NCBI GenBank assembly: GCA_021852275.1
Contig: JAJZNX010000025.1
Coordinates: forward strand, 621-64,620
Length of the DNA: 64,000 nt
Direction: 5' to 3'
Source: Planctomycetota bacterium
Lineage (GTDB): Bacteria > Planctomycetota > Phycisphaerae > WQYP01
Part shown: positions 2,023 through 21,850 of the stretch, piece after piece
How positions within the stretch are numbered: position 1 is the stretch's first letter
Layout: each line of letters opens with the position of its first letter
Notes under the pieces: model-generated
Told to the model about the DNA's origin: nothing
The model's input: the letters and a program-made list of their open reading frames with translations, nothing else
Databases searched by the model: none
Program-made: the position numbers and the translations under genes

Positions 2023-2063
2023 ATTCTAAGCTCCCGGCGGCTGGGCTAAACTTGCTACTGGAT

Positions 2064-2080: not shown

Positions 2081-2190
2081 GCAGTATATCTCGCGTCATC
2101 ATACACACTAGCGGTCAAGCCAAGTCTGGCATGATGTTAAGCCTATGAAACAGTATAACACACTTTTTCACATTTTCCAGCAGAATTGCC

Positions 2191-2219
2191 TTGACAATGA
2201 ATGTTTCAGCCGTCATAGT
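2191..2219 (+). promoter_or_regulatory. candidate sigma70-type promoter for the DUF1559 / surface-protein locus
   Basis: TTGACA (2191-2196), a 17-nt spacer, then CATAGT (2214-2219). Sequence match only. Confidence 0.3.
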
Positions 2220-2256
2220 ACAGATAAATATAAGGGCTGCGGCGAGCACCCTGATG

Positions 2257-2272
2257 CCTTGGAACACCAAGG
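2257..2272. promoter_or_regulatory. perfect palindrome CCTTGG-AACA-CCAAGG (operator or 5'-UTR hairpin)
   Basis: 6-bp arms with a 4-nt spacer, located between the candidate promoter and the ATG at 2365. Confidence 0.3.
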
Positions 2273-2364
2273 CGACATTTGCTTAAGCGTGTTGGGTGGT
2301 CTCGCTCCGGCTGGATTTGTGGGGTTGTCGATTACCGAATTGGCGACCCCAGGAGGTTTCACCC

Positions 2365-3312: not shown

Positions 3313-3479
3313 GCGGCCGGAAGAGAAAAGTCGCACAAATGTTAAATGTGAGGCCGGCATCAGGTCGGACAGACGGCAGTGTAAGAGGGTAACAATGCTG
3401 CAGGATGTTTGCAATGAGAAAAAAAGCAACGTACTGTGTGGTACGTTATTTTGAGGGTTCTTTTTAAGGAGTAGCACCT

Positions 3480-5606: not shown

Positions 5607-5739
5607 ACTTGTAACATAGGCTTTGGTTTGGGGATTCCTCTATCGCACAGATGTACATTCAGGTGAGCGGTGAGTGTGTGAAACCGCCTTTGGCGGCAGG
5701 CATAGAGCGCGGTTGTATTGTTTAAGGAGATTGGCGGAA

Positions 5740-7086: not shown

Positions 7087-7203
7087 TGTCGGGAAGAGAC
7101 AGGGCGGTGACGCCGCGGAAAGGAAGGCGCAAACCCGGTGGGAGTGTGGCGCGAATTTTCCCGGCAATCCGGGAATAGTCCGGGCGAGAGTGAAGGAGTG
7201 ACA

Positions 7204-9888
7204 ATGAATAAAAATTTAACGTATCTGCTTTTGCTGACGGCCGGAGCGGCATGGTGCACGGGGAGGCCACCGGTTGCACAAGGCCGGGCAATGGGTATAG
7301 ACGTCTCGAATTTTCAGGGGAGTATCAACTGGACGCAGGTGGCCGCGGACAGCGTGGGCGGCAGTTCCATCAGCTTTGCGTGGGCGAAATGTGATGAAGG
7401 CAGCGCAAGTAACGTAGACTACATTGATCCGACTTTTCAAACTAATGTGGCTGGTGCTACAACAGCAGGCATTATGATCGGGGCGTATCATTTAGCACAT
7501 CCGGAGCTTGACACGCCGGCATCCGAGGCGGATTTCTTCGTGGCCAACGCCCGCGCGCAGATTGGTGCCGGCTACCTGCGGCCGGTGCTGGATCTGGAGG
7601 AGGGTGGTGGAGTGCCGGTGGTGGGGGCATCAAGTCTGTCCGGGTGGGTCAATGATTTTTTAAGCGATGTGCAGGCTCTCAGCGGGGTTACGCCGATTAT
7701 CTATACGGACAGCAATTACGCCCAGAGTTACCTTGATTCGAGCGTAGCGAAGAACAATCTCTGGATCGCCAATTATAATTATCCAACGCAATCACAGACG
7801 GCCAGCCCGCCGGTTGGCGTTTTCAATGTCTGGAATTTCTGGCAATACACGGACAGTCTTAGCCTATCTGGCATCAGCGGCAACGTGGACGGCGATGTGG
7901 CTAACGGCCCGGTAAGCTACGTACAGAGCTTTGTGACCCCGATTGACACGCTGCAGTGGAATTCGGGTGAAAGCGGCAGTGGTGGTACTGATGGCAACGG
8001 CACATGGGGCGGGACTGGCAAGCAGTGGTACGACACGACAACTGTGGCCGGTCCTGTGCTGTGGACCACCGGTGACGGGGCGGCGCTCGGCAGTGGAAGT
8101 TCGGGGCAATACACCATTACGCTGACCAATGATGTTATCTGCGGCCAGAATGAAACCGGTACGTCAAATGCGGGGCCGTTTGTCGGCCTGACGGTTGCCT
8201 CCGGCGCCAACTATAACCTGAACGGTTCTGGACAGCTTTACTCGCTGACTGACAATGGCCGATTTCAGGTTAACGGCCGGCTTACCTTGGGAAACATTAC
8301 CCTGGACAATAGTTCGTATGACCATAACGTTTATTCAAGCATATCGGGCGTCTACGGAGGCCAGTTGAACATCGGTGCAGGGGCAAATGTCAATGCGGCG
8401 GAGATTGATGCGGGCGGGGGCAGCGGCGCAACCGGGACGATTAACGTCAATAGCGGAGGCAGTTTACTGGTAGGTTCGCGATTGCAGATCAACTTCGGCA
8501 AGGGGCCGGCCAGCGGTACCGGCGGCGTAGTAAATGTTGAAGGTGGTACGATCAGCTTGGGAAGCAGTGGAATCATCTGGCTTAGCGATGTGAACACGGG
8601 CGGGGGCAGCAATGGATCTGTGGGTACCCTCAACGTGGGTACAGGTGGCACCGGCGGCATTGTTACCGCCCCGGAAATGGAAACGGCATATAACAACACT
8701 GCGCAGACCGGGGTGTTGAATATTTACAGCGGTGCCGTTACACTCACCGGGGGTATTGCTGTTACCGCCAATGGCTCGGCAGTTACGGATGTCAATGTTT
8801 ACGGCGGTACATTTAACGCCGCTTCCGGCACGATTACCTCGGCTGTCGGGGCAGGTACAAACCTGAACGTAACGGGTGGAATCGTTACAGCGGCGACAAT
8901 CGATGCCGCGGGAACCACCAGTATGACCATCAGCGGCAGCGGCATCGTGAAAGCCACGAGTACTGGTGTCGGCGGGTCAATTACCAGTGGCAGCGGCGGT
9001 ACAACGACGATCAATCTTGACGGCGGGGTGCTATTTGTTTACACCATCAGCGGTGCCGGTGACGGGAACACCACACTTAATTTTAACGGCGGAATGCTGC
9101 AGGAAAATGGCGGATCTTCATTCGATCAGAGTATGATCAGCAGCGCCGGTGGATCGAAGCCGAACGTTTATATCGATAGCGGAGGAGGAATCATTGATAA
9201 CAATTCTGCAACTGTAATTGACTATGCACCATTTCTGGCGGGAACAACTTCCGGCGGCGGCCTGACGATTGCCAACAGCGGCAGCGGCGGAGCGGTCGAA
9301 CTGGCAGGTGGAGCCAACACGTACACGGGAGCGACGGAAATTAAATCTGGTGCCACCCTGGCGCTGGCGTACCATAACGGCGTGTCGGCTACGATTGTAG
9401 ACAGCAGGTTGCTGCAGATAGACACGGGAGGTACGTTGGACCTTACGGAGGAGGCGACGGGACAGCAGATCAGCGTTGGCGGATTGAGACTGGCGGGAGG
9501 CACCCTGAGATTCCTGCTGGACGGCAGCCAACTGCAGAGCATTGCCGCGAGCAGTGCCGCAACGGTCAGCGGCACAAACTGGATTGATATTTTTACCAAA
9601 GGATCTTCTCTCACAGTCGGCACGTACAACTTAATCAGTGATGGGCAGGGTGGATTATCAGGTGGAGGAAGCTTGAATTTTGGTAATGGTCTGGATCAGG
9701 AAACGGTTGTTGTTGGTTCTAACGGATACCTATTAACCTTGATAAATTCCGCCACACTGGAGACTTTGACCGTCGGCACGCAAGGGACCATTCCTGAACC
9801 ACCGGCGTTGGGGCTGGTGGCCGAGGCCGTGCTGCTGCTAGGGTGGAGCAGACGCACATACCGCGGTTTTAAACGCCAATGCGTATAA
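7204..9888 (+). CDS. GH25 muramidase (lysozyme) domain fused to beta-strand-repeat region and PEP-CTERM anchor
   Basis: ATG at 7204 follows GAAGGAG, and a signal peptide is present (LTYLLLLTAGAAWC). The GH25 signature runs GIDVSNFQGSINW...GAYHLAHP...LRPVLDLEE...IIYTDSNY...LWIANYN...WNFWQYTD...GNVDGDVANG. About 650 aa are paralogous to 3480-5606. The C-terminus is IPEPPALGLVAEAVLLLGWSRR. Confidence 0.85.
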   Translation: MNKNLTYLLLLTAGAAWCTGRPPVAQGRAMGIDVSNFQGSINWTQVAADSVGGSSISFAWAKCDEGSASNVDYIDPTFQTNVAGATTAGIMIGAYHLAHPELDTPASEADFFVANARAQIGAGYLRPVLDLEEGGGVPVVGASSLSGWVNDFLSDVQALSGVTPIIYTDSNYAQSYLDSSVAKNNLWIANYNYPTQSQTASPPVGVFNVWNFWQYTDSLSLSGISGNVDGDVANGPVSYVQSFVTPIDTLQWNSGESGSGGTDGNGTWGGTGKQWYDTTTVAGPVLWTTGDGAALGSGSSGQYTITLTNDVICGQNETGTSNAGPFVGLTVASGANYNLNGSGQLYSLTDNGRFQVNGRLTLGNITLDNSSYDHNVYSSISGVYGGQLNIGAGANVNAAEIDAGGGSGATGTINVNSGGSLLVGSRLQINFGKGPASGTGGVVNVEGGTISLGSSGIIWLSDVNTGGGSNGSVGTLNVGTGGTGGIVTAPEMETAYNNTAQTGVLNIYSGAVTLTGGIAVTANGSAVTDVNVYGGTFNAASGTITSAVGAGTNLNVTGGIVTAATIDAAGTTSMTISGSGIVKATSTGVGGSITSGSGGTTTINLDGGVLFVYTISGAGDGNTTLNFNGGMLQENGGSSFDQSMISSAGGSKPNVYIDSGGGIIDNNSATVIDYAPFLAGTTSGGGLTIANSGSGGAVELAGGANTYTGATEIKSGATLALAYHNGVSATIVDSRLLQIDTGGTLDLTEEATGQQISVGGLRLAGGTLRFLLDGSQLQSIAASSAATVSGTNWIDIFTKGSSLTVGTYNLISDGQGGLSGGGSLNFGNGLDQETVVVGSNGYLLTLINSATLETLTVGTQGTIPEPPALGLVAEAVLLLGWSRRTYRGFKRQCV

Positions 9889-10084
9889 TCGGGGCAGCGT
9901 CTTGAGATCCAAGGGATGCCCGAACAATTTCGCAACGCTTAATGAATCATGGTATTTTCACGGTGCAAGGAAGAAACGACCGGTTGGCACCTGATGCGAG
10001 ACGACGTTTGGTCAGGAAGTCGGTGGCGAGTAACATGGTTGCGTTTAGCAGTGGGGGGGTACCATGGGATACAGTGGAGTTCAT

Positions 10085-10414
10085 ATGCAGCGCAATGAGG
10101 CGGACGGGATTATTATTTCCTGCGACTTTTGTGGGACGGATTGGGATGGCCAGGCCGCAATGGTCGAGGGGCATCATGGTTCGGTCATCTGTCTGGATTG
10201 CGTAAAAAAAGCGTTGGAAGGGGCCGCAGTGGGCGAGGATAAATACGAATGTACGTTGTGCCTGCGTCATAATATACCAGGGTCGCTGCCGCGGTGGACT
10301 AATCAGCCTAAGTTCAGTGCGGTGGTTTGCCAGGAATGCTTACATCAAGCGGCCAAGGCATTAAGCAAGGCACCCCATGCTCAATGGAAATGGCAGGGTG
10401 GAGCCAAAAAATAA
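10085..10414 (+). CDS. small protein with two ClpX-type C4 zinc-finger-like modules
   Basis: ATG at 10085 with GGAG 5 nt upstream. CDFCGTDWDGQAAMVEGHHGSVICLDCV resembles the ClpX N-terminal zinc-binding pattern CxxC...CxxC. A second module reads CTLC...VVCQEC. Confidence 0.5.
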   Translation: MQRNEADGIIISCDFCGTDWDGQAAMVEGHHGSVICLDCVKKALEGAAVGEDKYECTLCLRHNIPGSLPRWTNQPKFSAVVCQECLHQAAKALSKAPHAQWKWQGGAKK

Positions 10415-10476
10415 AATTGACATAGCCATGCTGCAGCGATAATCTACTAAAGTTATCTTTCAACAAGGAGATTAAA

Positions 10477-11430
10477 ATGAGTCGGCTTTTTCCAGACATT
10501 ACCTCTACGATGGGCAATACACCCCTGGTACGAATCAATCGTTTGATTCCAGCCGGACAGGCGACAGTATACGCCAAATGCGAATTTTTTAATCCGTTAG
10601 GCAGCGTGAAAGACCGCATTGGCGTGGCAATGATTGCGGCAGCGGAAAAGGCGGGGCAAATTAACAAAGAAACGCACATCTTGGAGGCTACCAGCGGCAA
10701 CACTGGAATAGCCTTGGCATTTGTGTGTGCGGCAAAAGGCTACAAACTTACGCTGTTCATGCCGGAAAGCATGTCGCTGGAGCGGCGTAAGCTGCTGCGA
10801 ATTTTAGGTGCGAACCTGGTATTGACACCAGCTACGGAAGGTATGCCGGGGGCGATCCGTCGTTGTTCTGAAGCGGCGGAACATGACAAGAACTCTCTGA
10901 TTGCGAGGCAGTTTGAAAATCCTGCCAATGTAGAGATTCACCAGAAAACCACTGCAGAAGAAATCTGGCGTGATACTGACGGCAAGGTGGATGTTTTAAT
11001 ATCAGCAGTAGGTACTGGAGGAACAATTTCAGGGGTGGCTTCGGTGATTAAGAAGCGAAATCCAAGATTTCGGGCGATTGCCGTGGAACCAACGAATTCG
11101 CCGGTGATAACGCAGACGAAAGCGGGCCAACCTATCAAGCCTGGCCCGCATAAGATTCAGGGTGCCGGTGCAGGATTTATTCCCAAGAACTTACATATGG
11201 ATATTGTGGATGAAGTGATACAATGCACGAATGAAGATGCATTTACCTGGGCGCGGCGTTTAGCGGCGGAAGAGGGAATTTTGGCGGGCATCAGTTCCGG
11301 AGCCAATATGTGGGCAGCGGCCCAGGTGGCAGCCAGGCCGGAAATGAAGGGCAAAGTGATTGTGACAATTATGTGTTCTACCGGAGAGCGGTATTTGAGC
11401 ACAGCCATGTTTGAAGGCTTGGATGTATAA
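10477..11430 (+). CDS. cysK: cysteine synthase A (O-acetylserine sulfhydrylase)
   Basis: 317 aa. [11 protein letters not shown], the PLP-lysine region [22 protein letters not shown] and GTGGTISG are canonical CysK motifs. Confidence 0.95.
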
Positions 11431-12033
11431 GGTTACCGTTGGAGGGTGGGTTAATTTTTGCGATAGGCGGGCAATTATACTCAATTTAACATAACGTATA
11501 TACTGATTCACATGTGTTAGGTAGTCTGAGTAACGAATGATTGGTATCTGTGGATGAATAATAGTACGTATTACTTTGATATGACCAGGTGGAGTCAGAG
11601 TAACAGAATGATGAGGCTGTTTTAGTACCTTTAGAATCCGAATTGCATAAGTCGGTAATCTGCGTCTGAAAGATATAACGCTAAGAGCACCATCAGATCC
11701 CCATGGCGATAAGGGACAATTAATCTGGTTAGGTTTTAACATAGTTGATGAGATGATAACTCCGTGGCGCAACCAGAAAATTCGGACTGGGAATTTACAG
11801 TATGTCATTGAAAACTTACGCCGGCCGAGTTTCCAATTAAAGAGAGAAGAGTATTGGTGAACGCTTGATATGTAACAGAGCTTTGCGGTTTTTAATACAA
11901 AAATCTTGGCTGGAAAATGGATGAACTTGATTGTTTGTGAGTTTTGCAGTCGAGCACGTATAATGACGACACGTGCTAAACAACTGGTTGAAGCCAGAGC
12001 TATGACTGAGAAAATTAAGAGGTACTTTTTCAT
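11260..12033 (-). CDS. hypothetical signal-peptide protein whose ORF runs across attL into host DNA
   Basis: A 257-codon ORF in AT-rich DNA, where the other frames are stop-dense. Begins [18 protein letters not shown]. Residues YIRYVKL are encoded by the att core. The last roughly 80 codons lie outside the prophage and antisense to the cysK 3' end. Confidence 0.35.
11481..11501. repeat. attL: left copy of the 21-bp direct repeat TCAATTTAACATAACGTATAT (hybrid dif-like site 11484-11511)
   Basis: Identical to 21660-21680. It contains ATTTAACATAA (reverse complement of the E. coli XerD arm TTATGTTAAAT) plus the 6-bp centre CGTATA. The distal arm TACTGATTCAC is non-canonical. Confidence 0.8.
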
Positions 12034-12481
12034 ATAAAGCCCTTTAATGAGAAAATTCTTATCAGGAATATGAGATCCTGTCAAGCAATGGCTGATAAAA
12101 AATCGAAAAAATGACGTTCAATCAAATATTTAACAGTACGTTAGGTATTTGTTTGTATCAGCCGACCTGATTACACCTCAGTAAAAGAGAAATGAGAAAG
12201 ATCCGCTCCACGGCCGCTTGGCCGCTTGCAACTCTCTTCCCTCCAGGCTGGCCGACTGCCGTCGGCATTAGTTTCGCAGGTTAAATATGTAATGATGCTT
12301 CGTGTAGATCAGGTGATGCCATTGCTGGCCTGCATGCATAATTCGTATCAGGTTACGGATGGACGAACGGTCCTGTTGGTTCTTTACGTGCTGAATCTGG
12401 CATTGAAATGACCAAAGAAAACAGTAAAAAAGCAGAAAGGCTATGCTGATGATTCTTGGCCAAGACTTCCACATATGTTAC

Positions 12482-12871
12482 CTAGTAAATAATGTGCTTT
12501 TGTTTTAATATCTCAGGTGGTATTTCGTCATTCTTACCGGCGATGGCACGCCAGAAGTTCTTAACGTGCTTAGTCTCTTGGTAAACGAAATGACGATCAG
12601 ATTCTGGACCTGTTTCAGGACATAATTCTCGGAACCAGATGATATCTAAGAGCTCGCAATATTTTCGCCTGGTAGCGTCAGAATGGATTATGTCCAAGAC
12701 TTGATACCCGAAGAGTTGGCCGAGAAATAAAGCTCCAATTGCTGATTCTAATTGTCGGGCATCTGTTTCGCTTCGGTGACTATCACGTAATGCGTCTTCC
12801 ACGGTTTGGAGAATTTTATGAAGGCGCTTTGCTTGTTCTCGGGTATGTGCAAATGGTTTAGTTTTTTTCAT
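12482..12871 (-). CDS. hypothetical protein (prophage accessory gene)
   Basis: 129 aa. The start overlaps the stop of the upstream ORF (ATGA at 12868-12871). No motif recognised. Confidence 0.6.
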   Translation of the reverse strand: MKKTKPFAHTREQAKRLHKILQTVEDALRDSHRSETDARQLESAIGALFLGQLFGYQVLDIIHSDATRRKYCELLDIIWFRELCPETGPESDRHFVYQETKHVKNFWRAIAGKNDEIPPEILKQKHIIY

Positions 12872-13131
12872 GATTTCTCCTCTAAAAAGTGTCCATTCAT
12901 CCGCTTAATCATCAGCAGGACAGCCGCAAACGCCTCCTGTTGGCCTTGCAACCTCCGATACGACGGGTCGTCCTCTCTGATGTGAATTGACTCAAGCTGG
13001 GCCATCCTGGCTTGCGCCTGAGCCTCCTTGCCCACCAGCCAGTTAATGAGTGGTTGACTGTCCATGACGGGATCCTTTCTGTAATGTTTTTGTTCGGCCT
13101 TCCGCTTCAGCGAAAAGCTTCTTGGACTCAT
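12868..13131 (-). CDS. hypothetical small protein (prophage accessory gene); the start is more likely the ATG at 13065
   Basis: 87-aa tracked ORF. An internal ATG at 13065 gives a 65-aa product, MDSQPLINWLVGKEAQAQARMAQLES..., predicted helical. Translationally coupled to 12482-12871. Confidence 0.45.
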   Translation of the reverse strand: MSPRSFSLKRKAEQKHYRKDPVMDSQPLINWLVGKEAQAQARMAQLESIHIREDDPSYRRLQGQQEAFAAVLLMIKRMNGHFLEEKS

Positions 13132-14329
13132 TCAGAACTGGCTTTAAAATGACTGAATGTCTCAAGCCACCCGGTAACAAGTGAGGTTGTTGGTAATGTT
13201 CTTTGCAGGCAACACTTTCCAAAGAGATCCACAAAGAAAATTCGTCGCCGGCATCGTCATCGGCTAAGGTTGGATTGTTTGAAGATATTCCAAATTCCTT
13301 GCCCAAGCTTCGGTCAGTAGCACGGACTAACTGTACGGTGTCTCCAACATATCCTTGTGCCAGAAAATTGATTGTCTGTTGTACTTCTGGTGCTAACGGG
13401 TTTGAATCACCACCAATAAAACTCGAGATTGTAAGGTTTCCAGCAATAACCCAGTGGTTGCCGACTCTTGCTGCATTGAGGTCAACTGTAAGCCCGGATG
13501 TGCGCGTAGAGTAGCCTGATGTCAGCAGGTTATTGGTATTGCTGGTTGCAGCAGTTGTAGTGTATTCAGGAGCGACAATTGTTGTGGTATCAGTGTACTT
13601 TTCCTCTTGCCGGCTAAGCATAGTTGCTCCAAATGTAGTGAGAACAGCTTGAGCTTGGTGCAGCACATTACCCAAGACATTAACTCCAACACCAGATACT
13701 GTGGTCATTGAGGTTAGCGGAGTTGAGATCCCGTTGACAGATATATCAACATTGTTTGCCCGGCTTTCGTTGAGGAGCCAGACTTTGACACGTACTTGAG
13801 GAACACGACGAAGTAAGAATCGAAGTAGCTTTTCTGCCTTCGAGTACAGGCTGATGGGACCAGTAACAACCAATCTGTCGCCAATAGCCGAGAAGTTGAC
13901 TCGTGGAATTGCAAGTTGTTCCGGAACAATGCCCGTTAAGCCAGGATTGATCGGGTTAGGGACAACGACAGTAAACTGCCGGCGATGAGACCAATGCAAG
14001 CGAATAACATTACCTCGGAGATGAGGAACCGTATCTGTTTCACGAGCTAAGACTCTTGACAATCTTCGGGCTGTATATCGTCCGGCAAGCCAAACAGGAT
14101 CATCCTGCAATCGTGGATTAAAAAGTAAATGCAGGTTTTCGGTTGCCAATGCGGAACGCAGTACCCGTAATGTCATAATGCCTGAGAGGCGAAAGCCATG
14201 ACCATATACGTGAAACTTACGGACTTCACGTATCGTAAAGTGCTGGTGGACTGGCGTGGATGGCAAATCACCCATAGCACAGCCGGTGAGTGATATCACT
14301 ATTAAAAACAAAATCGTTAACCGCTTCAT
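13043..14329 (-). CDS. secretin-family outer-membrane channel, lipoprotein (phage pIV-like)
   Basis: 428 aa. Lipobox LTGC at residues 14-17. The C-terminal half (TVDLNAARVGNHWVIAGNLTISSFIGG...PEVQQTINFLAQGYVGDTVQLV) follows the secretin C-domain pattern. The size matches f1 pIV (about 426 aa). ATGA overlap with the Zot-like gene. Confidence 0.75.
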   Translation of the reverse strand: MKRLTILFLIVISLTGCAMGDLPSTPVHQHFTIREVRKFHVYGHGFRLSGIMTLRVLRSALATENLHLLFNPRLQDDPVWLAGRYTARRLSRVLARETDTVPHLRGNVIRLHWSHRRQFTVVVPNPINPGLTGIVPEQLAIPRVNFSAIGDRLVVTGPISLYSKAEKLLRFLLRRVPQVRVKVWLLNESRANNVDISVNGISTPLTSMTTVSGVGVNVLGNVLHQAQAVLTTFGATMLSRQEEKYTDTTTIVAPEYTTTAATSNTNNLLTSGYSTRTSGLTVDLNAARVGNHWVIAGNLTISSFIGGDSNPLAPEVQQTINFLAQGYVGDTVQLVRATDRSLGKEFGISSNNPTLADDDAGDEFSLWISLESVACKEHYQQPHLLPGGLRHSVILKPVLNESKKLFAEAEGRTKTLQKGSRHGQSTTH

Positions 14330-15552
14330 CTAATAGCTTTCTCATGGATAGTCATAGCACCCGCCTGATGACGTAATGTATCTGGAGCTTTTGGCTTTGG
14401 AGGCCACCACCAATATCGTTGAGTGACTTTGCCGGCTGGTCCCATGATTTGAATACCACCATAATTGACATCGAGTATTTTCCATCCATCAAATTTAAGT
14501 CCGATGGGAAGTAGGCCAACGTGAGATCCGTTACCCAGTATGACAGAATCGCCGATGATCCCATATAGACGGAGCTTTGATGACTTTTTGTAGACTTTTC
14601 TGACGATAATCTGTTTATGATTCTTTTTGGCAGGTAAATGCTGGTGATCGTATATGGCATCGGCCACCAAGAAAAGTGCCAAGACGGCCAAAACGTATCT
14701 TTTCCACTTTCGACGAGGCTTTTCTGCATGGTGGTTGGCGTTAACTTGCACAATTGTTTGTTGCGGCTGAACTTGTCCTGCATAAGCCGGATTAGCAGGA
14801 GGTATCGGTATGTGATAAGTCTGGGAAGACTGTCCAGGTTCAGGTTGATCACTTAGCACAATTGGCATGACTTTATTTCCTGTTGGTCGACTAACAACTG
14901 ATCCAGGTCGATTAGCCTTATTGGCAGCAACTTTGGCGCGAGTGTCGTACAGTTTGTAATAAGGGAGCATTTCCGCCGCTGTAACAACACGCGGAAGACC
15001 GATAGCCTGTTGTCGCTGACCATTCTCCACATTGTAAGTACGCTGGAAAAAAAAAATCGGACGGCCGCCGACTCTTGGTACAAATTCTGGGAATCCAACT
15101 CGTCTACAAGCTGTAAATCGTGTAGCCCGTTGGCGAATGAAAATATCCAGGTTGGCAAAATTCTGGCACAAGAGCCAGAGGCTATCGCCGTCTTTCCTGA
15201 ATTGTGATATGTAGGCTTGGAATGTGTTGCGATGGCCTGAGGAATCTTTCTCCGCACTGTTGATCTTCCAATCGCGAGCGGACCAGATCAGGTGAGCTTC
15301 GTCTACGTAGACGTCATATCCAGGAGGTATCAACTCCCAGAAGTGTCTGGTTTCTCCGGCATCATCGTCCAATAGAACAACTTCAGCACCCGACCAGATT
15401 CTTTTGGCTTGCTGCACAAAAGCAGGCAGGATTGCAATATTGGTTGCAATTTTATGGTGTCGGTAAACAGAATCGAGCATCAATTGTACGGCGAGCAGGC
15501 TTTTGCCACGACCTGGTGCACCGTCAATTATTGTCAGTGTACCATCCATCAA
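14326..15552 (-). CDS. Zot / pI-like P-loop morphogenesis ATPase
   Basis: Walker A IIDGAPGRGKS, Walker B-like VYVDEAHLIW, and an internal TM segment (RYVLAVLALFLVADAIY) as in inovirus pI/Zot. The likely true start is the ATG at 15549 (TGATG overlap with the upstream ORF). Confidence 0.85.
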   Translation of the reverse strand: MMDGTLTIIDGAPGRGKSLLAVQLMLDSVYRHHKIATNIAILPAFVQQAKRIWSGAEVVLLDDDAGETRHFWELIPPGYDVYVDEAHLIWSARDWKINSAEKDSSGHRNTFQAYISQFRKDGDSLWLLCQNFANLDIFIRQRATRFTACRRVGFPEFVPRVGGRPIFFFQRTYNVENGQRQQAIGLPRVVTAAEMLPYYKLYDTRAKVAANKANRPGSVVSRPTGNKVMPIVLSDQPEPGQSSQTYHIPIPPANPAYAGQVQPQQTIVQVNANHHAEKPRRKWKRYVLAVLALFLVADAIYDHQHLPAKKNHKQIIVRKVYKKSSKLRLYGIIGDSVILGNGSHVGLLPIGLKFDGWKILDVNYGGIQIMGPAGKVTQRYWWWPPKPKAPDTLRHQAGAMTIHEKAIR

Positions 15553-15950
15553 CTATTACCCCAGAACTGATGATAAGCGATCAGGGCAATTCGGATTAAC
15601 AGACAAACAGGTAGCAGGAGAAGGAGAAAGGCCAAACCGTCAACAAATACGGCCATATCAATAAATGGGTTAATTACGTCAGATAAAATGCTATAAATGT
15701 TCTCTATTACTGGTGCTGCATTGGTTATTGCAGTGGTGATATAGCTGACGACATATGTTAACCCCATGGCAGATATGCTAGCTTGAAAGAAGCTTGAAAT
15801 TTCAGGCAGGTAACCTTCAAGGCATGAGTACATGTAGGTCCAGATAACTTGAGCAGCAGCTTCTAAGCCCTGTATGACAAACTTTGTCGCAAAGTGTGCG
15901 AAATCAACCAGTGGCTGCATTACGTATGAGATAGTACCAGAAAGACTCAT
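15549..15950 (-). CDS. hydrophobic minor-coat-like membrane protein (pVI-like by size and position)
   Basis: 133 aa with several hydrophobic segments. Located between the adsorption-protein gene and the Zot-like gene, as gene VI is in Ff phages. Confidence 0.55.
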   Translation of the reverse strand: MSLSGTISYVMQPLVDFAHFATKFVIQGLEAAAQVIWTYMYSCLEGYLPEISSFFQASISAMGLTYVVSYITTAITNAAPVIENIYSILSDVINPFIDMAVFVDGLAFLLLLLPVCLLIRIALIAYHQFWGNS

Positions 15951-15952
15951 TT

Positions 15953-18157
15953 TTAGTCCTCGTTAGATGGTGCTCCGAGTTTGAAAGGTAATTCACCACC
16001 CCATAGTGACCAGTGAAAAATCTTAACGGTTGCGACCAGAATCCATAAAATATAAAAGCCGGTGCAAATTGGTTGTAACCACTCGCAGCCTGTAGAGAAG
16101 GTTATTAGACCGGCAACGAATGCGTTACCAATTGTTGAAACTTCACCATCCGGATCTGATGATGAAGTCGAAGTGAAACCAGGTCCTGTCCAGGAAACAC
16201 CGTTTGAAGGTTGCTGGATGCCGCCGTAAAGCGGCATATTCGAGAGGTTGGTTTGACCATCTGTATTGGATGCAGACGCAACTGCACCGATGCCCGTTGA
16301 TTCTGTAGATGCGTTAGCAGAGTTAAGAATGGTGTTTGTTACAAACTGCAATGGTTGTGTGAGTCTTGTAGCCTTTAATACGTCATAAGCACCTGTGCCT
16401 GAAGTGCTGTTAAATGTGTAAGAACCGGATGAAGATGTAGCAGAAGGCATGTCTTGGGTTAGTTGTGTGACCATATAGCCAGCATCAGAAGATGCTGATA
16501 ATGCAGAGCTTTGGGTGTTTTGCTGAATTGTAGTTTGGGAAAGTTGACCACTGGTCAGTCCAGAGAACGTGGCCAGGTAAGGTTTGATGTTTCCGTTTGC
16601 ATCTGGGGCGTTATAGAACGCCTCGGCGAACATGTTTGTATAGACACCTTGAGGTGTGTCAGGTCCCTGATACCACTCGGCTGGAGTTTCTCCAGGTGCC
16701 TGTTGGAAGGAGGAAGTAGTAATGAAGTTATATGGTGCAGTTAAGTAACCTGATTGCGTTTCAGTGATACCATATGCGTATGAGAGTAGTTGTGGTAATG
16801 ACGCACTAACTTGACTCCCGAATGGCATGCTATTCAAACTTCCATTACCGTATTGGTTGTAAAATTGCCAGTCTAGTGCACCAAATGATGTGTAATAAGG
16901 TTGTGGTATAGATCCACCTAAACTCGAATTATAAAATTGACCTATATCGTAATTTGGTTGCCAGGTGAGAGCAGCGGCGATGTCGTCTAAATAGCTGTTT
17001 CCCTCCGGATCAAGAAAAACACTGTGGCCGATGTCGGGGTTGCCTTGTGGCCCGGTTAGGTTTGGATTGTCGGTTAGGAATACGCTGCTGCCCAGTGGGA
17101 CGGTTTCGGTGCCGGTGATTGCTTGTGCTTGGGTTTGGAATGCTGAATCCCAAATACCCTGTTGGGGGTAGGTCTGGTTGTGGTTTGGCATGTACCATGC
17201 TTCCCAGTTGTTTCGTCCCGAGAAGACAGATACGCTTTCTTCTGGTCCGTATTCGTCTTTGAATACGGAGCTTAGGCCTGCTTTTGGGCTGTTGGATGTG
17301 ATGCCTGTGTCGTAGTTGAGTTGTGCAAAGTAGGACAGTCCGCCGTTTATTCCGAGGTTGGTGTTCGCGGTGGGTTGGACGAAGGCGCTTGCTCCGTATT
17401 TGTCTGTGAAGACGGGCCAAGAGTTGTTGTATTCGGTGGCTTCTTGCCATGCCGTCGGGGGCTGAAGTGCGTTTGCTAGGTTTTGCGCCGCGGCGTCCGG
17501 GTTGTAGGCGAAGTCGGATTGTTCGGTCAAGGCGTTGTAAAACAGGCTGTTGCCGTTGCCGTCCTTGAATACGCTGGTGGCGGTGCCTTTCTGGTTTCCG
17601 GAGGAGTTTGTGTAGGTTGGGGTGAAAGAGAAGTCGCTGCCGCCGGTGTTGGGGTCTATGAAGACGCTTTGGTAGGTTGATGGTTCGTTTAGGGTGCCGG
17701 TGGCGTAGTAGGGCATTCCGTTGCCCATCATCCACCATGGGTTTTGGCTGTATTGTTGCTGGAATACGCTCCATTGGTTGTTTTGGTCGTAGAAAGCGTG
17801 GTAATTGATTGATGCGGTGCTGGCGAGTACGCCAGTTTGGTTGGCGGTGTTGCCGCGTATGGCGGGTAGTTCGCCGACGGTGCTTGTGCCGACGGTTGCG
17901 TCGTTTGCTATGCCGATTTGGGCGGCGCTTTGGTTGATGGCGTTTACCACGGTGCTGAAGGCTGGGTATGAGCCTGATCCGTTGTTGTTGGTGTAGGCCG
18001 CGCTTGCCGTTGCGCAAGGGGCGGCGGCTGTGGCTAGGATTATGGCTGCGGCCGCCGTGTGGTGCCAGTTGGTGCGGGTGGTCCGCTGGGGCCAGGCGGT
18101 CGCTAGGAGGCTGTGTAGTCGGTGCGCGTCTTGTCGTCGTGTTTTTTTGGCGTTCAT
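15953..18157 (-). CDS. large N/S/T/Q/Y/G-rich secreted protein with a C-terminal membrane anchor (pIII-like adsorption / receptor-binding protein)
   Basis: The ATG at 18157 gives MNAKK...AAAAIILATAAAPCATASA, a signal peptide. The C-terminal hydrophobic anchor is GFYILWILVATVKIF. The largest gene of the element sits immediately upstream of the pVI-like and pI-like genes. Confidence 0.65.
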   Translation of the reverse strand: MNAKKTRRQDAHRLHSLLATAWPQRTTRTNWHHTAAAAIILATAAAPCATASAAYTNNNGSGSYPAFSTVVNAINQSAAQIGIANDATVGTSTVGELPAIRGNTANQTGVLASTASINYHAFYDQNNQWSVFQQQYSQNPWWMMGNGMPYYATGTLNEPSTYQSVFIDPNTGGSDFSFTPTYTNSSGNQKGTATSVFKDGNGNSLFYNALTEQSDFAYNPDAAAQNLANALQPPTAWQEATEYNNSWPVFTDKYGASAFVQPTANTNLGINGGLSYFAQLNYDTGITSNSPKAGLSSVFKDEYGPEESVSVFSGRNNWEAWYMPNHNQTYPQQGIWDSAFQTQAQAITGTETVPLGSSVFLTDNPNLTGPQGNPDIGHSVFLDPEGNSYLDDIAAALTWQPNYDIGQFYNSSLGGSIPQPYYTSFGALDWQFYNQYGNGSLNSMPFGSQVSASLPQLLSYAYGITETQSGYLTAPYNFITTSSFQQAPGETPAEWYQGPDTPQGVYTNMFAEAFYNAPDANGNIKPYLATFSGLTSGQLSQTTIQQNTQSSALSASSDAGYMVTQLTQDMPSATSSSGSYTFNSTSGTGAYDVLKATRLTQPLQFVTNTILNSANASTESTGIGAVASASNTDGQTNLSNMPLYGGIQQPSNGVSWTGPGFTSTSSSDPDGEVSTIGNAFVAGLITFSTGCEWLQPICTGFYILWILVATVKIFHWSLWGGELPFKLGAPSNED

Positions 18158-18363
18158 TTTGCAAGTTCCTTGTAGTGGTTGACTATTTCCGGGGTTCGGG
18201 CGCATTTGCCGCAGAGTCCACGGCCGCGGCTGAAGTCTACCCAGAGCCAGGATGTACCGTCTGGGCCTCTCCTGCGGCCAGTAAGATGGCATCCCACGCA
18301 TCGGCACTTTGTCCAAGACTGTCTGGACATGATCATTAGACGACGATCAATTTTCATTTTCAT
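18154..18363 (-). CDS. small Cys-rich zinc-ribbon-like protein
   Basis: ATG at 18363 with GGAAAGGA just upstream. 69 aa containing CRCVGC...CGKC. Its stop overlaps the pIII-like start (ATGA at 18154-18157). Confidence 0.45.
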   Translation of the reverse strand: MKMKIDRRLMIMSRQSWTKCRCVGCHLTGRRRGPDGTSWLWVDFSRGRGLCGKCARTPEIVNHYKELAK

Positions 18364-18484
18364 TGTCCTTTCCGCTTTTTGGTGAAAACATGGGTTTAAG
18401 CAGTGGCAGATAGACAAAAGCATAGAAGGCAAACATGCCACAAAAAAATGACAACACTGGCATTACATAATCTCCAAACGATGC

Positions 18485-18501
18485 CCGGGCCGGGGCCGAT
18501 A
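18485..18501. repeat. left arm of a 17-bp perfect inverted repeat bracketing the major-coat gene
   Basis: CCGGGCCGGGGCCGATA is the exact reverse complement of 18819-18835. Confidence 0.9.
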
Positions 18502-18525
18502 TTAGAGTGTGAAGTAACCTTCGGA

Positions 18526-18804
18526 TTACTTCATGGCGTGTTTGGCCCTCCGGAAGATAAAGAACACTGTCCAGATCGCGGCCCCGATACCGATGATCGG
18601 GAGCAAGGCCGGGTAAATGTAGGTGGTCAGTGACCCAACAATGTTATCAGGCGAGACCGATGAGGAAAGTGTAGGACCGTAGTCTACCTGTGCCCATGTA
18701 ATGCCATGGAAAAACAACGTGCCAACCAGGGCAACTGCTGCGAACAGAAAAGTCCGTGTTCGTCGGAAGAGGCTTGAAGCCATCGAAATTAGAGAAGAAA
18801 ACAT
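18526..18804 (-). CDS. major coat protein candidate (pVIII-like)
   Basis: 92 aa. Signal peptide ending ITWA/QVDY, then an acidic/polar N-terminus. One TM helix (ALLPIIGIGAAIWTVFFIF) and a basic C-terminus (RRAKHAMK). This is the classic inovirus coat architecture. Confidence 0.7.
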   Translation of the reverse strand: MFSSLISMASSLFRRTRTFLFAAVALVGTLFFHGITWAQVDYGPTLSSSVSPDNIVGSLTTYIYPALLPIIGIGAAIWTVFFIFRRAKHAMK

Positions 18805-18818
18805 AAAAGAATCCTTTC

Positions 18819-18835
18819 TATCGGCCCCGGCCCGG
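18819..18835. repeat. right arm of the 17-bp perfect inverted repeat bracketing the major-coat gene
   Basis: TATCGGCCCCGGCCCGG lies 15 nt upstream of the coat ATG. Its partner is at 18485-18501. Confidence 0.9.
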
Positions 18836-18842
18836 AGACCGA

Positions 18843-19025
18843 TTAAGTATCACTTTCATTGTCAGAACCATACCGATCGTCAATGATAAAATGTTGGTCT
18901 TTGTTTGAATTATCAGCAGCTTCGTTATTGTCAGAAAACAGAACGTGTACAATCTCGATGATCCAAGTAATCACTGCAATGCAGATACTTAGCCACCACA
19001 TGCTGATGTTGTAAATGATTCTCAT
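18843..19025 (-). CDS. small single-TM protein (minor coat-like)
   Basis: 60 aa, MRIIYNISMWWLSICIAVITWIIEIV..., with an acidic tail. The ATG overlaps the stop of the upstream ORF (ATGA at 19022-19025). It is hidden in the track inside a longer 136-aa ORF. Confidence 0.4.
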   Translation of the reverse strand: MRIIYNISMWWLSICIAVITWIIEIVHVLFSDNNEAADNSNKDQHFIIDDRYGSDNESDT

Positions 19026-19216
19026 TTTAAGACTTCCCAACATCTTCGGATGATCCAAGGTCCAAAAAATAGGCCGGCTGCACAACCACAGAGAACAAGA
19101 GCACCAGGTGCCAACCAACTCCAAACTGATTCGCCAATTTGTATTGCCGTGACTACAGGCTCCGGTCCGTATGAAGAAGCGGCTGCAATCTGTGCCAAAA
19201 TCATGTTTACTTCCAA
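19022..19216 (-). CDS. small single-TM protein (coat-like: hydrophobic core, basic C-terminus)
   Basis: 64 aa. The TM segment is APGALVLCGCAAGLFFGPWII, followed by RRCWEVLK. Confidence 0.45.
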   Translation of the reverse strand: MEVNMILAQIAAASSYGPEPVVTAIQIGESVWSWLAPGALVLCGCAAGLFFGPWIIRRCWEVLK

Positions 19217-19500
19217 TCCAATAAATCAACAGCTTGGCGCCAGATCCAGCCAAAACTCATGCTTGTTGACCAGATCAATAAACCGGCTCCCATACCATCC
19301 ATGAATCCGTTAAGGCTAAGATTGGGCTCGTTAGGTTGTGTCCAAATAGGATAGCCAGAATCAGGGTTAGGAGGCGTCATCTGGTAAACCGTGACATCGC
19401 CTGCGGAACTTTGTCCAGGTTGTAATTGACCCAAAACAAGGCTTTGTGTTGCCCAAATAGCCCAGGCAGCGAAAAAAAGATAAATGATGGCCAGTTTCAT
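19207..19500 (-). CDS. small secreted/membrane protein
   Basis: An internal ATG at 19500 gives MKLAIIYLFFAAWAIWA, a signal peptide. 97 aa with a C-terminal hydrophobic segment. Confidence 0.45.
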   Translation of the reverse strand: MKLAIIYLFFAAWAIWATQSLVLGQLQPGQSSAGDVTVYQMTPPNPDSGYPIWTQPNEPNLSLNGFMDGMGAGLLIWSTSMSFGWIWRQAVDLLDWK

Positions 19501-19517
19501 AGAAAATATTCCCCGGG

Positions 19518-19925
19518 TCAGGCTGGAGACTCCCTGTAGGCCAAGGTCCATTCAATAACACGCTCAAGCCATATCGGTATGTTTGGTGGGGGGTTTGGCG
19601 GTTTTGTGTTATTAATCAAGTAAAGCTTTTTAACTCCCGAATTATCGCCGGCGGCGGCTTCGCTAATCGCCGCCGGCATCTGTTCGGGATACCCAGAAAG
19701 TGATACTGAATTAACAACACCAAAAACCGACCGGAAACACCCGAGAAAATATTGCCAGGTTGTAGCGTCTATGGTGACCGCAATCCATCCTTTAGAACCA
19801 GCAGGTACTAAATCTAGTCCTAGATGTCGAAGCGTATCAAGCAGCTGATTGAAATTGATTTTTAGATTGCCAAACCATCGTCCGTAGACCCTGTACGTGC
19901 TTCTATTGCTGGCCTTGTCTATCAT
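19518..19925 (-). CDS. C-terminal portion of the replication initiator (separate ORF only because of a frameshift at the G10 tract)
   Basis: This reading frame is open upstream of its ATG as far as 20030. It joins the Rep frame if the G run at 19974-19983 is one nt shorter. Confidence 0.5.
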   Translation of the reverse strand: MIDKASNRSTYRVYGRWFGNLKINFNQLLDTLRHLGLDLVPAGSKGWIAVTIDATTWQYFLGCFRSVFGVVNSVSLSGYPEQMPAAISEAAAGDNSGVKKLYLINNTKPPNPPPNIPIWLERVIEWTLAYRESPA

Positions 19926-20523
19926 TTGACCAATGCTGGTATAAACAGGGATAGGGATCGGCCCATTTGGCCGCCCCCCCCCCTGACCGAACTGGTGACC
20001 TCCAGAAACCAGGTGAGGCGTGAATGATCTTCACCGACCCTGCCCTGTATGTGTATAAAAATGGTGGTACACCATCAGTTTTTGAAAAGTATTTACAGAA
20101 ATAGCGGAGTTCAAATTCACCGGCCCGCCTGATCCAGACAAAGCCCCAGCCCCAGCATTTATCGAGCAGGTCATGTTCGATTCTGTCCAGGCCGATTATT
20201 AAAATGTGCCAATGAAGCCAGCCTCCAGATTGAAACTCTGTTTTAGCAATCCATAGTCCGGTTAGCGAAGTGCCGAGGCGCTCACTTAATCTGGTAATGA
20301 ACCGTCTTAGGTGACGTTCAGCAGAGGCTTTGTAGTAAAGGTCATCTGGGGATTGGAACTCTTCACGTCGATAGGTCAGTTCGATTTTAAGAACACGTTC
20401 ACCCTTACAACGAGTAATAAGTTTCTCGGCTAATTGCCAGGCTTTCACCGGCCCGTAAGTAGCGTCAAGCCAGGAACGTGCCTGACCAGGTTTAATCTCT
20501 ACGTCTGTTGCGTTGTTATCCAT
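19903..20523 (-). CDS. rolling-circle replication initiator, HUH endonuclease (phage gene II-like), N-terminal portion
   Basis: HUH motif GGWLHWHILIIG, and a downstream Tyr motif, ELRYFCKYFSK. The ORF ends 21 codons after the G10 tract. Confidence 0.7.
   Translation of the reverse strand: MDNNATDVEIKPGQARSWLDATYGPVKAWQLAEKLITRCKGERVLKIELTYRREEFQSPDDLYYKASAERHLRRFITRLSERLGTSLTGLWIAKTEFQSGGWLHWHILIIGLDRIEHDLLDKCWGWGFVWIRRAGEFELRYFCKYFSKTDGVPPFLYTYRAGSVKIIHASPGFWRSPVRSGGGAAKWADPYPCLYQHWSNDRQGQQ
19974..19983. repeat. homopolymer C10 (G10 on the coding strand) inside rep
   Basis: Counted directly: ccg + 10 c + tga. Confidence 0.95.
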
Positions 20524-20582
20524 TTAATCGTCTCCAAGTTATTTCAAAGTCTGGAGCTCTCTCTCCGCTCCCCAGGCTAGTC

Positions 20583-20846
20583 TTACTTGGAGACAATTCT
20601 TTTTGCGTTCGTGAGCATGAACTTCCAAGAATTATTAAACTGCTCGAAATTGCCTGTGCACTCATACTGTGCACCGACCTGACAGGAATCTGCCAGCTTC
20701 TGGTCCCTGGTAGCCAACTCGAATGTCCCGCCCATGCATGAGAATTTGACCAGGTGCTGGAAGACCCGGCCATCTTTGGTTTTCAGGTCACGGACTTCTG
20801 AACAGACACCAACCAACTGAAACGAGGGAATCGGAGCAAAATCCAT
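20583..20846 (-). CDS. small protein, candidate ssDNA-binding protein (gene V-like by size and position)
   Basis: 87 aa, the same length as f1 gVp. Good RBS (GAAAGGA), immediately upstream of rep. No sequence motif was verified. Confidence 0.4.
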   Translation of the reverse strand: MDFAPIPSFQLVGVCSEVRDLKTKDGRVFQHLVKFSCMGGTFELATRDQKLADSCQVGAQYECTGNFEQFNNSWKFMLTNAKRIVSK

Positions 20847-20858
20847 AAATGGATCCTT

Positions 20859-21578
20859 TCATAAAACGCATAACTGATGCGCGTCAGGACAAACCAAACT
20901 GGCTGGTCGAGCCATGCCGTGAAGGAGGAACACGGCATGGTTGCGACGAGTCAGGTAGGACAACTGACCGGTCACAGGCGTAGGAGCTTTATTTTGGAAG
21001 TAGCGGCAAATACCAGACTGTAACAGGCTGTATTGGGTGGCAGTTTTCTGGAATGAGTTGACTTGGTGCCTTAATTTTCGAGAGTTTGTTCTTGTGTTCT
21101 TCGAATAAGAAGAGCCAGACAAGTTCATCGGCTGGAGCAGCAGCGAGGATTGATGCTGTAATAGAAGAGCAATTACTTGGCAGATAAGGGCACCCGTTGT
21201 TGGTGATTGCCAGTACGTGTCCATTGATAACGTCAATTGGTTGAAATTTTGGATCCATAAAATACTCCTGATAAAAAGAGATTGGCCGGTTAAGAAAGAT
21301 CGGAGATTGCGTGGACTGGTTAATGGGTTAAGCCACCTTAAAGGAAAGATTTCAGGTCCCGGGTAACCCGGAATGAATCTCATATCTTTAAGTGAACGAA
21401 ACCAGTCTGAATGTATCCAACGAATTGCGGCATTGTGCCGGCGGACATCATAGTTATGCAGTCTGATGATTGTAATAACGTTAAGCCAGATGACCCAGAT
21501 GAAAAAAGTAATCAGGAAAGGCCATCGTACTGACTTGTAGACACGATCAATTATGTTTTCAAAACGCTTAAAGTCCAT
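20859..21578 (-). CDS. hypothetical membrane protein (first gene of the prophage; true 3' end uncertain)
   Basis: ATG at 21578 with AGGTG upstream. The N-terminal roughly 100 aa contain a clear TM segment (WPFLITFFIWVIWLNVITII). The distal part is S/L/Q-rich, overlaps the 89-aa ORF and includes the hairpin. Confidence 0.35.
   Translation of the reverse strand: MDFKRFENIIDRVYKSVRWPFLITFFIWVIWLNVITIIRLHNYDVRRHNAAIRWIHSDWFRSLKDMRFIPGYPGPEIFPLRWLNPLTSPRNLRSFLTGQSLFIRSILWIQNFNQLTLSMDTYWQSPTTGALICQVIALLLQHQSSLLLQPMNLSGSSYSKNTRTNSRKLRHQVNSFQKTATQYSLLQSGICRYFQNKAPTPVTGQLSYLTRRNHAVFLLHGMARPASLVCPDAHQLCVL
20912..20940. repeat. perfect 10-bp stem / 9-nt loop hairpin CCATGCCGTG-AAGGAGGAA-CACGGCATGG
   Basis: Read directly. 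It lies 66 nt upstream of the SSB-like gene start, in the segment between the 89-aa ORF and that gene. Confidence 0.9.
20989..21258 (-). CDS. hypothetical protein
   Basis: 89 aa. The ATG at 21258 is preceded by AGGAG with a 6-nt spacer. It overlaps the 239-aa ORF in a different frame. Confidence 0.4.
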   Translation of the reverse strand: MDPKFQPIDVINGHVLAITNNGCPYLPSNCSSITASILAAAPADELVWLFLFEEHKNKLSKIKAPSQLIPENCHPIQPVTVWYLPLLPK

Positions 21579-21659
21579 GCTGGCACCTGTTAGGTAATAG
21601 TTTGCAGTCTGTTTGGGCAGTCCTGTAATAACAGTTTATTCTGTAAATTTTAGAGGTGG

Positions 21660-21690
21660 TCAATTTAACATAACGTATATTATAGGACGT
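21660..21690. repeat. attR: right copy of the 21-bp repeat plus the complete 28-bp dif-like site (21663-21690)
   Basis: ATTTAACATAA-CGTATA-TTATAGGACGT. The reverse complement ACGTCCTATAA-TATACG-TTATGTTAAAT aligns with E. coli dif GGTGCGCATAA-TGTATA-TTATGTTAAAT. The XerD arm matches 11/11, and the ATAA end of the XerC arm is conserved. Confidence 0.75.
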
Positions 21691-21776
21691 TGTATAAATT
21701 ATAAAAAAGCTGGTGACGCCCGGTTTTATAGGAAAATTGCGTCAAGAGCCGTCTCCGCATATTCTTTATTCAAGTC

Positions 21777-21850
21777 GCGCTCGTAGCTCAGTTGGATAGA
21801 GCGGCGGTTTCCTAAACCGCAGGTCGCAGGTTCGATCCCTGTCGGGCGCA
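21777..21850 (+). tRNA. tRNA-Arg (anticodon CCT)
   Basis: 74 nt, folded by hand as a cloverleaf. Acceptor GCGCTCG/CGGGCGC, anticodon loop TTCCTAA, T-loop TTCGATC. Confidence 0.9.

Follow-up and report, generated by a model that had tools for sequence, protein, structure and literature searches.

The window analysed in this study is a stretch of 64,000 nt from contig JAJZNX010000025.1 of the metagenome-assembled genome GCA_021852275.1 (Planctomycetota; Phycisphaerae; WQYP01). It carries a prophage of about 10.2 kb which, from its genes, is identified as an inovirus. The largest structural gene of this prophage encodes a predicted adsorption protein of the pIII type, and the 5' half of this gene differs abruptly from the rest in base composition and codon usage. 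Overall, it appears, with a probability of about 0.85, that a 1.2-kb segment, from the last 30 or so codons of an upstream zinc-ribbon open reading frame (ORF) through codon 378 of the pIII-like gene, is a recombinant module imported from a different inovirus lineage. In the following, "N-phage" denotes the backbone prophage of the window, which has a normal composition, "T-poor" denotes a thymine-depleted coding strand, and T3, C3, A3 and G3 are the base frequencies at third codon positions. L001 and L002 are loci with T-poor inoviruses, which are treated below. The features of the region are as follows.

15953..18157, minus strand: pIII-like gene of 734 codons, from the ATG at 18157 to the stop at 15953 (ORF map)
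17024..18157, minus strand: pIII codons 1-378, predicted signal peptide and variable N-terminal domain, T3 0.04 (codon analysis)
15953..17023, minus strand: pIII codons 379-734 and stop, presumed resident C-terminal half with a putative membrane anchor at about residues 693-719, T3 0.32 (codon analysis, Kyte-Doolittle)
16964..17089, minus strand: hinge, residues 357-398 (SSVFLTDNPNLTGPQGNPDIGHSVFLDPEGNSYLDDIAAALT), the most conserved block of the family, with the putative 3' crossover
17025..18244, minus strand: putative replaced cassette of about 1,220 nt, coding strand A 0.31, C 0.36, G 0.20, T 0.13 (change points; first sibling mismatch at 18244)
17022..17041, minus strand: 20-nt stretch AACCCCGACATCGGCCACAG, identical to the T-poor pIII gene of L001 (alignment, codon list)
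18097..18290, minus strand: 5' sub-segment of the cassette, similar to the L002 type (63-95% per 30-column block, about 84% overall; 82% over 18294-18103)
18154..18441, minus strand: zinc-ribbon ORF (CxCxxC...CxxC), coupled translationally to the pIII-like gene via ATGA, 66% identical to a 67-aa ORF of L002 (ORF map)
17010..18164, minus strand: spurious shadow ORF of 384 codons in another frame, rich in Arg, His and Gln (ORF map)

The pIII-like protein

The 734-codon gene sits between a pVIII-like ORF and a pVI-like ORF followed by Zot. Kyte-Doolittle peaks above 1.4 (19 residues) are found only at residues 34-55 and 693-719. The position, the size and the two hydrophobic segments fit a pIII-type adsorption protein. 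Five relatives besides its own entry were found among 1.84 billion representative proteins, none with a recorded Pfam domain. A search with the N-terminal half found two relatives only, P0003 (72%, 834 aa, on ENA contig L001) and P0004 (30%, 871 aa), the latter carried on L002-L007, including GCA_021800165.1. A word-index search with residues 395-734 returned the protein itself alone, and a full HMMER search with the C-terminal half gave five distant relatives. The alignment of the family found no relatives in IMG/VR or the JGI metagenomes.

In the alignment of the hinge, columns S379-D383 and G386-D392 are invariant, and the identity of this block to the relatives is 58-86%; that of the C-terminal half to all relatives is 18-33%. 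The N-terminal domain (17024-18000, residues about 53-378) holds about nine spaced 'SVF'-type motifs (WSVFQQ, QSVFIDP, TSVFKDG, WPVFTDK, SAFVQP, SSVFKDE, VSVFSGR, SSVFLTD, and HSVFLDP), which recur in all members of the family and suggest a repeated beta-structural unit. In addition, contigs from four other samples (L019-L022) begin within the C-terminal half of the gene, at 16905, 16712, 16534, and 16812, which hints at extra strain variation or low coverage in 16534-16905.

Composition break and limits of the cassette

Sliding profiles gave a GC content of 0.52-0.63 between about 17000 and 18300 versus about 0.45 on either side, with plus-strand skews over the same interval of -0.3 to -0.47 (AT) and +0.2 to +0.34 (GC). 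In the frame of the pIII-like gene, codons 1 to about 375 have a T3 of 0.00-0.07 and a C3 of 0.47-0.75, after which T3 is 0.25-0.42. Since A3 (about 0.3) and G3 (about 0.1) are nearly constant across the switch, it is essentially one between T3 and C3. The maximum-likelihood change point for pyrimidine-ending codons falls after codon 378, with its last base at 17024: T/(C+T) is 0.061 (14/229) through this codon and 0.559 (114/204) after it (Fisher p=8.8e-32), and five T-ending codons in a row (AGT GTT TTT CTT GAT) follow directly. Change points in the plus-strand frequency of A lie at 17025 and 18280, with 0.127 inside and 0.28-0.29 outside. In the cassette part of the gene, Asn is encoded by AAC 37 times and by AAT twice, Tyr by TAC 18 times and never by TAT, Asp by GAC 13 times and by GAT once, Thr by ACC 29 times and by ACT once, and Gly by GGC 20 times and by GGT once, while Ser has moved to AGC. 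The most extreme AT-skew window of the host genome, out of 17,377 windows, lies in the cassette, and the cassette T3 of 0.04 is below that of all 2,419 host open frames of at least 250 codons (minimum 0.079, first percentile 0.153, median 0.233).

An abrupt change of composition and codon usage at about 17020, with C-ending Asn, Tyr, Asp, and Thr codons upstream of it, had been the starting point of the original prediction, which was made from the letters of the sequence. The change point agrees with the switch motif given there ('...GGC CAC / AGT GTT TTT CTT GAT'), and the codon counts are as it described. The Arg-rich shadow ORF of 384 aa at 17010-18164 is also present; since every stop codon starts with T, it is a by-product of the T-poverty. 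The 5' limit has to be corrected. It had been put at about 18340, with the whole zinc-ribbon ORF inside the cassette; the sibling mismatch and the change point in A frequency now place it at about 18244-18290, and just the last 30-45 zinc-ribbon codons (about 30 with the limit at 18244) are inside.

At the other end, the last of the C-ending codons has its third base at 17024, and the next codon, the first to end in T, has its third base at 17021. Because the switch falls between these positions, the 3' crossover would lie in, or just after, the 20-nt stretch at 17022..17041. The cassette itself is a mosaic, L002-like at 18290-18097 and L001-like at 18013-17025. The first 18 residues of the protein (MNAKKTRRQDAHRLHSLL) are identical to those of P0004, and the part at 18013-17025 has 76% nucleotide identity to the T-poor type of L001.

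Evidence for an exchange

When the two halves of the protein are compared separately with P0003, as had been proposed, the identity is 77% over residues 53-356, 86% in the hinge (357-398), and 33% over residues 399-734. In other pIII pairs of the family, the identities of the N- and C-terminal parts are roughly equal, and the backbone proteins of the prophage share 25-41% identity with their counterparts in the T-poor phages. The similarity break coincides with the composition break, in the hinge and at codon 378. The 3' crossover would be placed where the best-conserved block of the family begins, S379-D392 of ...GHSVFLDPEGNSYLDDI... (GHSVFLDPxGNSYLDDI), and the 5' crossover within the conserved zinc-ribbon ORF.

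The other arm of L001 carries a sibling of the N-phage. Between the att end (21691) and 18245 it is nearly the same as the window, with 14 differences in 3,447 nt; beyond this point, 10 differences fall within 45 nt, the first at 18244, and then the alignment collapses. At the 3' end of its zinc-ribbon ORF the sibling is still T-normal, and its signal peptide is T-rich; from the mature N-terminus (AYTNNNGSGSYPAF) onward it matches, at 93/93 positions, the pIII of the T-poor phage that L001 also carries. L001 stops after this identical stretch, as a repeat would predict. The T-poor N-domain cassettes in one N-phage backbone thus have two or more distinct 5' junctions, and since the junction of the sibling is a different one, the exchange probably happened more than once.

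Taken together, the composition, the similarity break, the sibling junction and the existence of a donor lineage all favour the recombinational replacement that had been predicted. A related prophage with an alternative N-terminal arrangement, which was to be looked for, was found in the L001 sibling, and a donor of different base composition was found in the T-poor lineage, its closest sampled match being only 76% identical in nucleotides.

A second copy of the cassette was not found in the same metagenome-assembled genome. In L009:6926-7005, window position 17002 is joined to inverted 17597-17676 via an 8-nt palindromic microhomology (TCCGGAGG). The 3' end of L009 was considered as a new junction and was rejected, as it is an inverted copy of 17597-17676. 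A Logan X4 unitig has a similar inversion (17781, inverted 17154-17002, 17605). The L009-type inversion is thus a minority form, present in one ENA contig and one Logan unitig; it may represent a defective variant that arose by rearrangement, a product of fold-back replication, or an artefact of the library.

The T-poor inovirus lineage

Seven inoviruses were found to be T-poor on the coding strand: L001, L002 (the same as G149), L014, L016, G184, G234, and G276. Over about 10 kb, their coding strands have A 0.29-0.33, C 0.32-0.36, G 0.19-0.23, and T 0.13-0.15. The T-poor regions are:

L001:3720-14485
L002:5607-17200 (G149)
L014:~5950-15950
L016:~800-11401
L038 (G184): 1-8000
L039 (G234): 1-12000
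L040 (G276): 2000-12000

In L001 and L002, where they were measured, T3 is 0.04-0.07 and the intergenic T is 0.10-0.14. All L001 genes between about 3720 and 14485, where the contig ends, have a T3 of 0.01-0.08; together they make up a complete inovirus, which has pIII, pVI, and Zot genes and an initiator of the Rep_trans-like type. Five T-poor prophages lie within host contigs (L002/G149, L014, G184, G234, and G276), with sharp borders to the host DNA. Five of the seven were assigned to the Phycisphaerae family of the window's host, among them G149, G184, G234, and G276, with G149 in its genus. In G149, the T-poor prophage sits at the tRNA-Arg/dif...cysK site that the prophage of the window also occupies, and the two have the same orientation. 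No T-poverty is seen in the Zot-carrying regions of other Phycisphaerae families, and in several of them (G016, G009) the coding strand is G+T-rich, the mirror image of the T-poor phages.

The T-poor phages have Rep_trans-like initiators (sub-threshold Pfam matches), and the N-phage has a G2P-type Rep. Because the coexisting N-phage is T-normal, T-poverty is not imposed on every inovirus of the host genus. It tracks the phage lineage with Rep_trans-like initiators rather than the host. Searches with the Zot of the N-phage in GTDB genomes and with the Zot of the T-poor phages in INPHARED phages found no relatives, and no report of T-depleted inoviruses was found in the literature searched.

Two candidate causes of the T-poverty were rejected. 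Avoidance of ultraviolet-induced TT dimers would deplete TT, which shows no depletion (odds ratio 1.09-1.28), and host-optimal codon usage does not account for it, as no host frame approaches a T3 of 0.04. A mutation spectrum could not be derived, since the six L002-type contigs or loci (one of which is the L002 record) have 0 single-nucleotide polymorphisms. In vertebrate mitochondria the sense strand is A+C-rich, and the antisense (heavy) strand is the one exposed as a single strand. By analogy, the T-poor phages might tentatively be regarded as an undescribed filamentous lineage which exposes or packages the strand complementary to its mRNAs ('negative-sense' inoviruses), or which is subject to another strand-specific A-to-G process, though this idea is rather unlikely to be correct.

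A related inovirus at L011:~6400-17000 (GCA_021785955.1), located beside the host genes that also flank the T-poor L014, has A 0.34, a normal T of 0.23, and a low C of 0.21. The partition between T and C therefore varies between sister phage lineages, and the excess of A over G is common to them.

Proposed explanation and alternatives

One possible scheme can be described as follows. The N-phage may swap the presumed receptor-binding N-terminal domain of its pIII-like protein with phages of a different lineage, which would infect the same Phycisphaerae host genus and use the same tRNA-Arg/dif-cysK attachment site. The exchange would be homologous, with crossovers in the conserved zinc-ribbon ORF on the 5' side and in the conserved hinge motif on the 3' side, and may take place between co-resident replicative forms or tandem prophages, the co-residence in one cell being presumed. 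The N-terminal domain would be replaced and the C-terminal domain retained, as the latter would have to fit the resident pVI and the virion cap. Such a swap may change the host or receptor specificity. The imported piece is conspicuous because the donor coding strand is so extremely T-depleted (T3 0.04-0.07), and since the cassette keeps the donor composition, without drift toward that of the backbone, the transfer appears to be recent.

At L001:3687-3730, an N-phage copy (reverse) and the T-poor phage (forward) lie head-to-head at a hybrid att/dif-like sequence (TCAATTTAACATAACGTAcATTATcGGACC). This may be either a Xer-type recombinant of the two phage att sites or a contig artefact. The join suggests co-residence of the two phage types, with a contig-level artefact as the other possibility.

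Several observations weigh against this import. The closest sampled match to the N domain has only 76% nucleotide and 77% protein identity; because the exact donor is unsampled, the word 'recent' rests on the unameliorated composition and not on near-identity. No T-normal 'native' N domain was found in relatives of the N-phage, and the direction of the exchange, with the cassette moving in, is therefore argued by parsimony, namely that about 9 of the 10.2 kb are T-normal and that the sibling keeps T-normal sequence upstream of its junction. All supporting assemblies that could be placed come from mine-drainage samples. The assignment as pIII has no support from profile searches, with 0 Pfam and 0 PHROG matches at E<=0.01, and sequence homology to any described pIII family was not found in either database. 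AlphaFold2 on an alignment of eight sequences of the pIII family gave a mean pLDDT (predicted local distance difference test) of 28.6, which is unusable. The role of the N-terminal half in receptor binding is proposed by analogy only, from the position of the gene, the topology of the protein, and the variability of the N-terminal relative to the conserved C-terminal part.

Mosaics are symmetric in principle, and since no T-normal native N domain was found in the N-phage lineage, the exchange may also be read in reverse: a T-poor ancestor would have had everything but the N-terminal module of pIII replaced, leaving the cassette as a remnant. This is improbable, because some 9 of the 10.2 kb are T-normal, among them the two att ends and the sequence on either side of the cassette, because the L001 sibling is T-normal where the window is T-poor, with a different junction that fits repeated small imports, and because the cassette itself combines two T-poor sources. 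It is more improbable still that the 5' half of a resident gene was hypermutated in situ in a strand-specific way (T to C on the coding strand, A to G on its complement). The nearly pure switch between T3 and C3, with A3 and G3 unchanged, does resemble the footprint of A-to-G editing. However, the composition changes where the relatedness does (77% versus 33% to P0003), the change of Ser codons from TCN to AGC and of Leu codons from TTA to CTA goes beyond single transitions, T is kept where the amino acid requires it (TAC, TTC, TGG, ATG), seven other phages have the same composition genome-wide, and the prophage has no template or variable repeat and no element resembling a diversity-generating retroelement. 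The cassette was also considered as the target of such a retroelement; this candidate was rejected, since no repeat of the cassette was found in 11400-21800, without a scan aimed at the reverse transcriptase, and a segment of 1.2 kb is ten times the size of a variable repeat.

The window derives from a metagenome-assembled genome, both phage types occur in the same samples, and several contigs (L019-L022, X3 and X4 unitigs) break within the pIII-like gene, all of which would be in line with a chimera of a T-poor phage and the N-phage joined inside the hinge by the assembler. Independent assemblies rule this out, and almost no weight is left to it: Logan contigs from each of two runs (10,936 nt at a depth of about 25) show 0 differences over 16500-18700, an interval that spans both junctions, ENA contigs of 90.8 kb match across the whole prophage, and a 143-kb contig encodes an identical 734-aa protein. 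In addition, no sampled T-poor phage is near enough to supply the cassette (best 76%), and the stretch shared at the junction, of 20 nt, is far below the k of 141 used by the assemblers. Equally hard to credit is local selection on translation or expression, by codon optimisation or an unstructured 5' mRNA, in the first half of the gene. C-ending Asn, Tyr, Asp, and Phe codons are often 'optimal' in bacteria, but no host frame of at least 250 codons has a T3 below 0.079, the intergenic DNA of the two donor phages measured is equally T-poor (T 0.10-0.14), and the break is a step and not a gradient. Overall, import of the cassette from the T-poor lineage is the explanation which agrees best with these observations.

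Comparison with known systems

The pIII proteins of Ff, IKe, and CTXphi have variable N-terminal domains for the receptor or co-receptor and a conserved C-terminal domain which anchors them in the virion. The gene in the window resembles them in its position between the major coat gene and pVI/pI, in its predicted signal peptide and C-terminal membrane anchor, and in having an N-terminal half that varies and a C-terminal half that can be aligned across the whole group. It differs in lacking Gly-rich linkers, in place of which it has the conserved SVFLDPxGNSYLDDI hinge and the 'SVF' repeats, and its protein has no detectable homology to the pIII families of Pfam or PHROG. In tailed phages, receptor-binding modules are swapped by homologous recombination at conserved junctions between phages that share a host. 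As in such fibre exchange, a domain for host recognition, a role which in the window is predicted, appears to be swapped at conserved junction sequences; however, the exchanged part in tailed phages is the distal C-terminal end, and in the window it is the N-terminal part of a filament tip protein.

Among filamentous phages, VFJphi of Vibrio cholerae is a mosaic of fs2 and VEJ/VCYphi (PMC3731265). The prophage of the window resembles mosaics of this type in that modules of several inovirus lineages seem to be combined by recombination in temperate phages with dif-type attachment sites; in the VFJphi type, the trees of the pIII-like, Rep, and Zot-like genes disagree with one another. Unlike the 700-bp att-proximal block of VFJphi, the unit in the window would be an intragenic domain, with a crossover inside pIII at a conserved hinge, and unlike those mosaics it is marked by an extreme contrast in base composition. 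The module swap is a known kind of event in filamentous phages, and the thymine-purged donor lineage is the unusual part.

Described single-stranded DNA phages have an average T of about 0.30 and over-use NNT codons; the cause given for this is deamination of C to T in the coding strand, the one that is packaged (Cardinale & Duffy 2011, PMC3278643). Their thymine-rich codon usage was also treated by Xia & Yuen 2005 (PMC1087484). The bias of the T-poor lineage is likewise strand-specific and clearest at third codon positions, but it has the opposite sign, with T at 0.13-0.15 and NNT codons at 4-7% in the two phages measured. The T-poor lineage contradicts the textbook bias of single-stranded DNA phages toward T and calls for an explanation in terms of the packaged strand, strand-specific mutation, or selection against T.

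Exchange of host-recognition domains is assumed to drive the host range of filamentous phages, and it is seldom caught with both junctions mapped to the nucleotide. The composition contrast serves here as a natural label, which points to an intragenic swap, at least two independent junctions, and donors sharing the host genus and a dif-type site. As inoviruses of Planctomycetota, these prophages are among the first with a detailed description, and their adsorption protein belongs to no known family.

The prophage and its other genes

All prophage genes lie on the minus strand (ORF map). The other features of the prophage are:

11481..21690, minus strand: inovirus prophage of about 10.2 kb with normal composition (T3 about 0.30), from Pfam/PHROG matches and att repeats
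14326-15552, minus strand: Zot/pI (PF05707, E=7e-9, 35.8 bits versus a cut-off of 20.3; also phrog_197 and phrog_1675)
15549-15950, minus strand: putative pVI-like gene, 133 aa (position, then Zot)
18526-18804, minus strand: putative pVIII-like gene, 92 aa (position)
19518-20523, minus strand: G2P-type Rep, split gene (PF23343 REP_ORF2-G2P, E=4e-12 at 19903-20523)

The 21-bp att repeats at 11481 and 21660 are 10,179 nt apart. As expected of an inovirus, the element has a Zot/pI ATPase, a rolling-circle initiator, and a compact one-strand genome (about 5-15 kb expected), and the order of the coat, pIII, pVI, and pI genes is the same as in L001, L002, L011, L014, and L016. Apart from the pIII-like gene, T3 is 0.17-0.37 in every gene of the prophage.

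The Rep gene is split in the window, in L010, and in L018, with a product of 206 aa (and an additional ORF of 135 aa in the window and L010). In the window, the G tract within this gene at 19974-19983 is G10; in the siblings L009 and L001 the tract is shorter by one G, and Rep is intact at 334 aa. The frameshift thus appears to be a population variant at a homopolymer.

An 87-aa ORF at 12868-13131 has 75-78% identity, over 55 residues, to 64-aa ORFs of the T-poor L001 and L002, and the neighbouring backbone genes are 25-41% identical. It is not T-poor (T3 0.17, G3 0.42); its small product may be under strong conservation, or the ORF may be a module that was exchanged at an earlier time.

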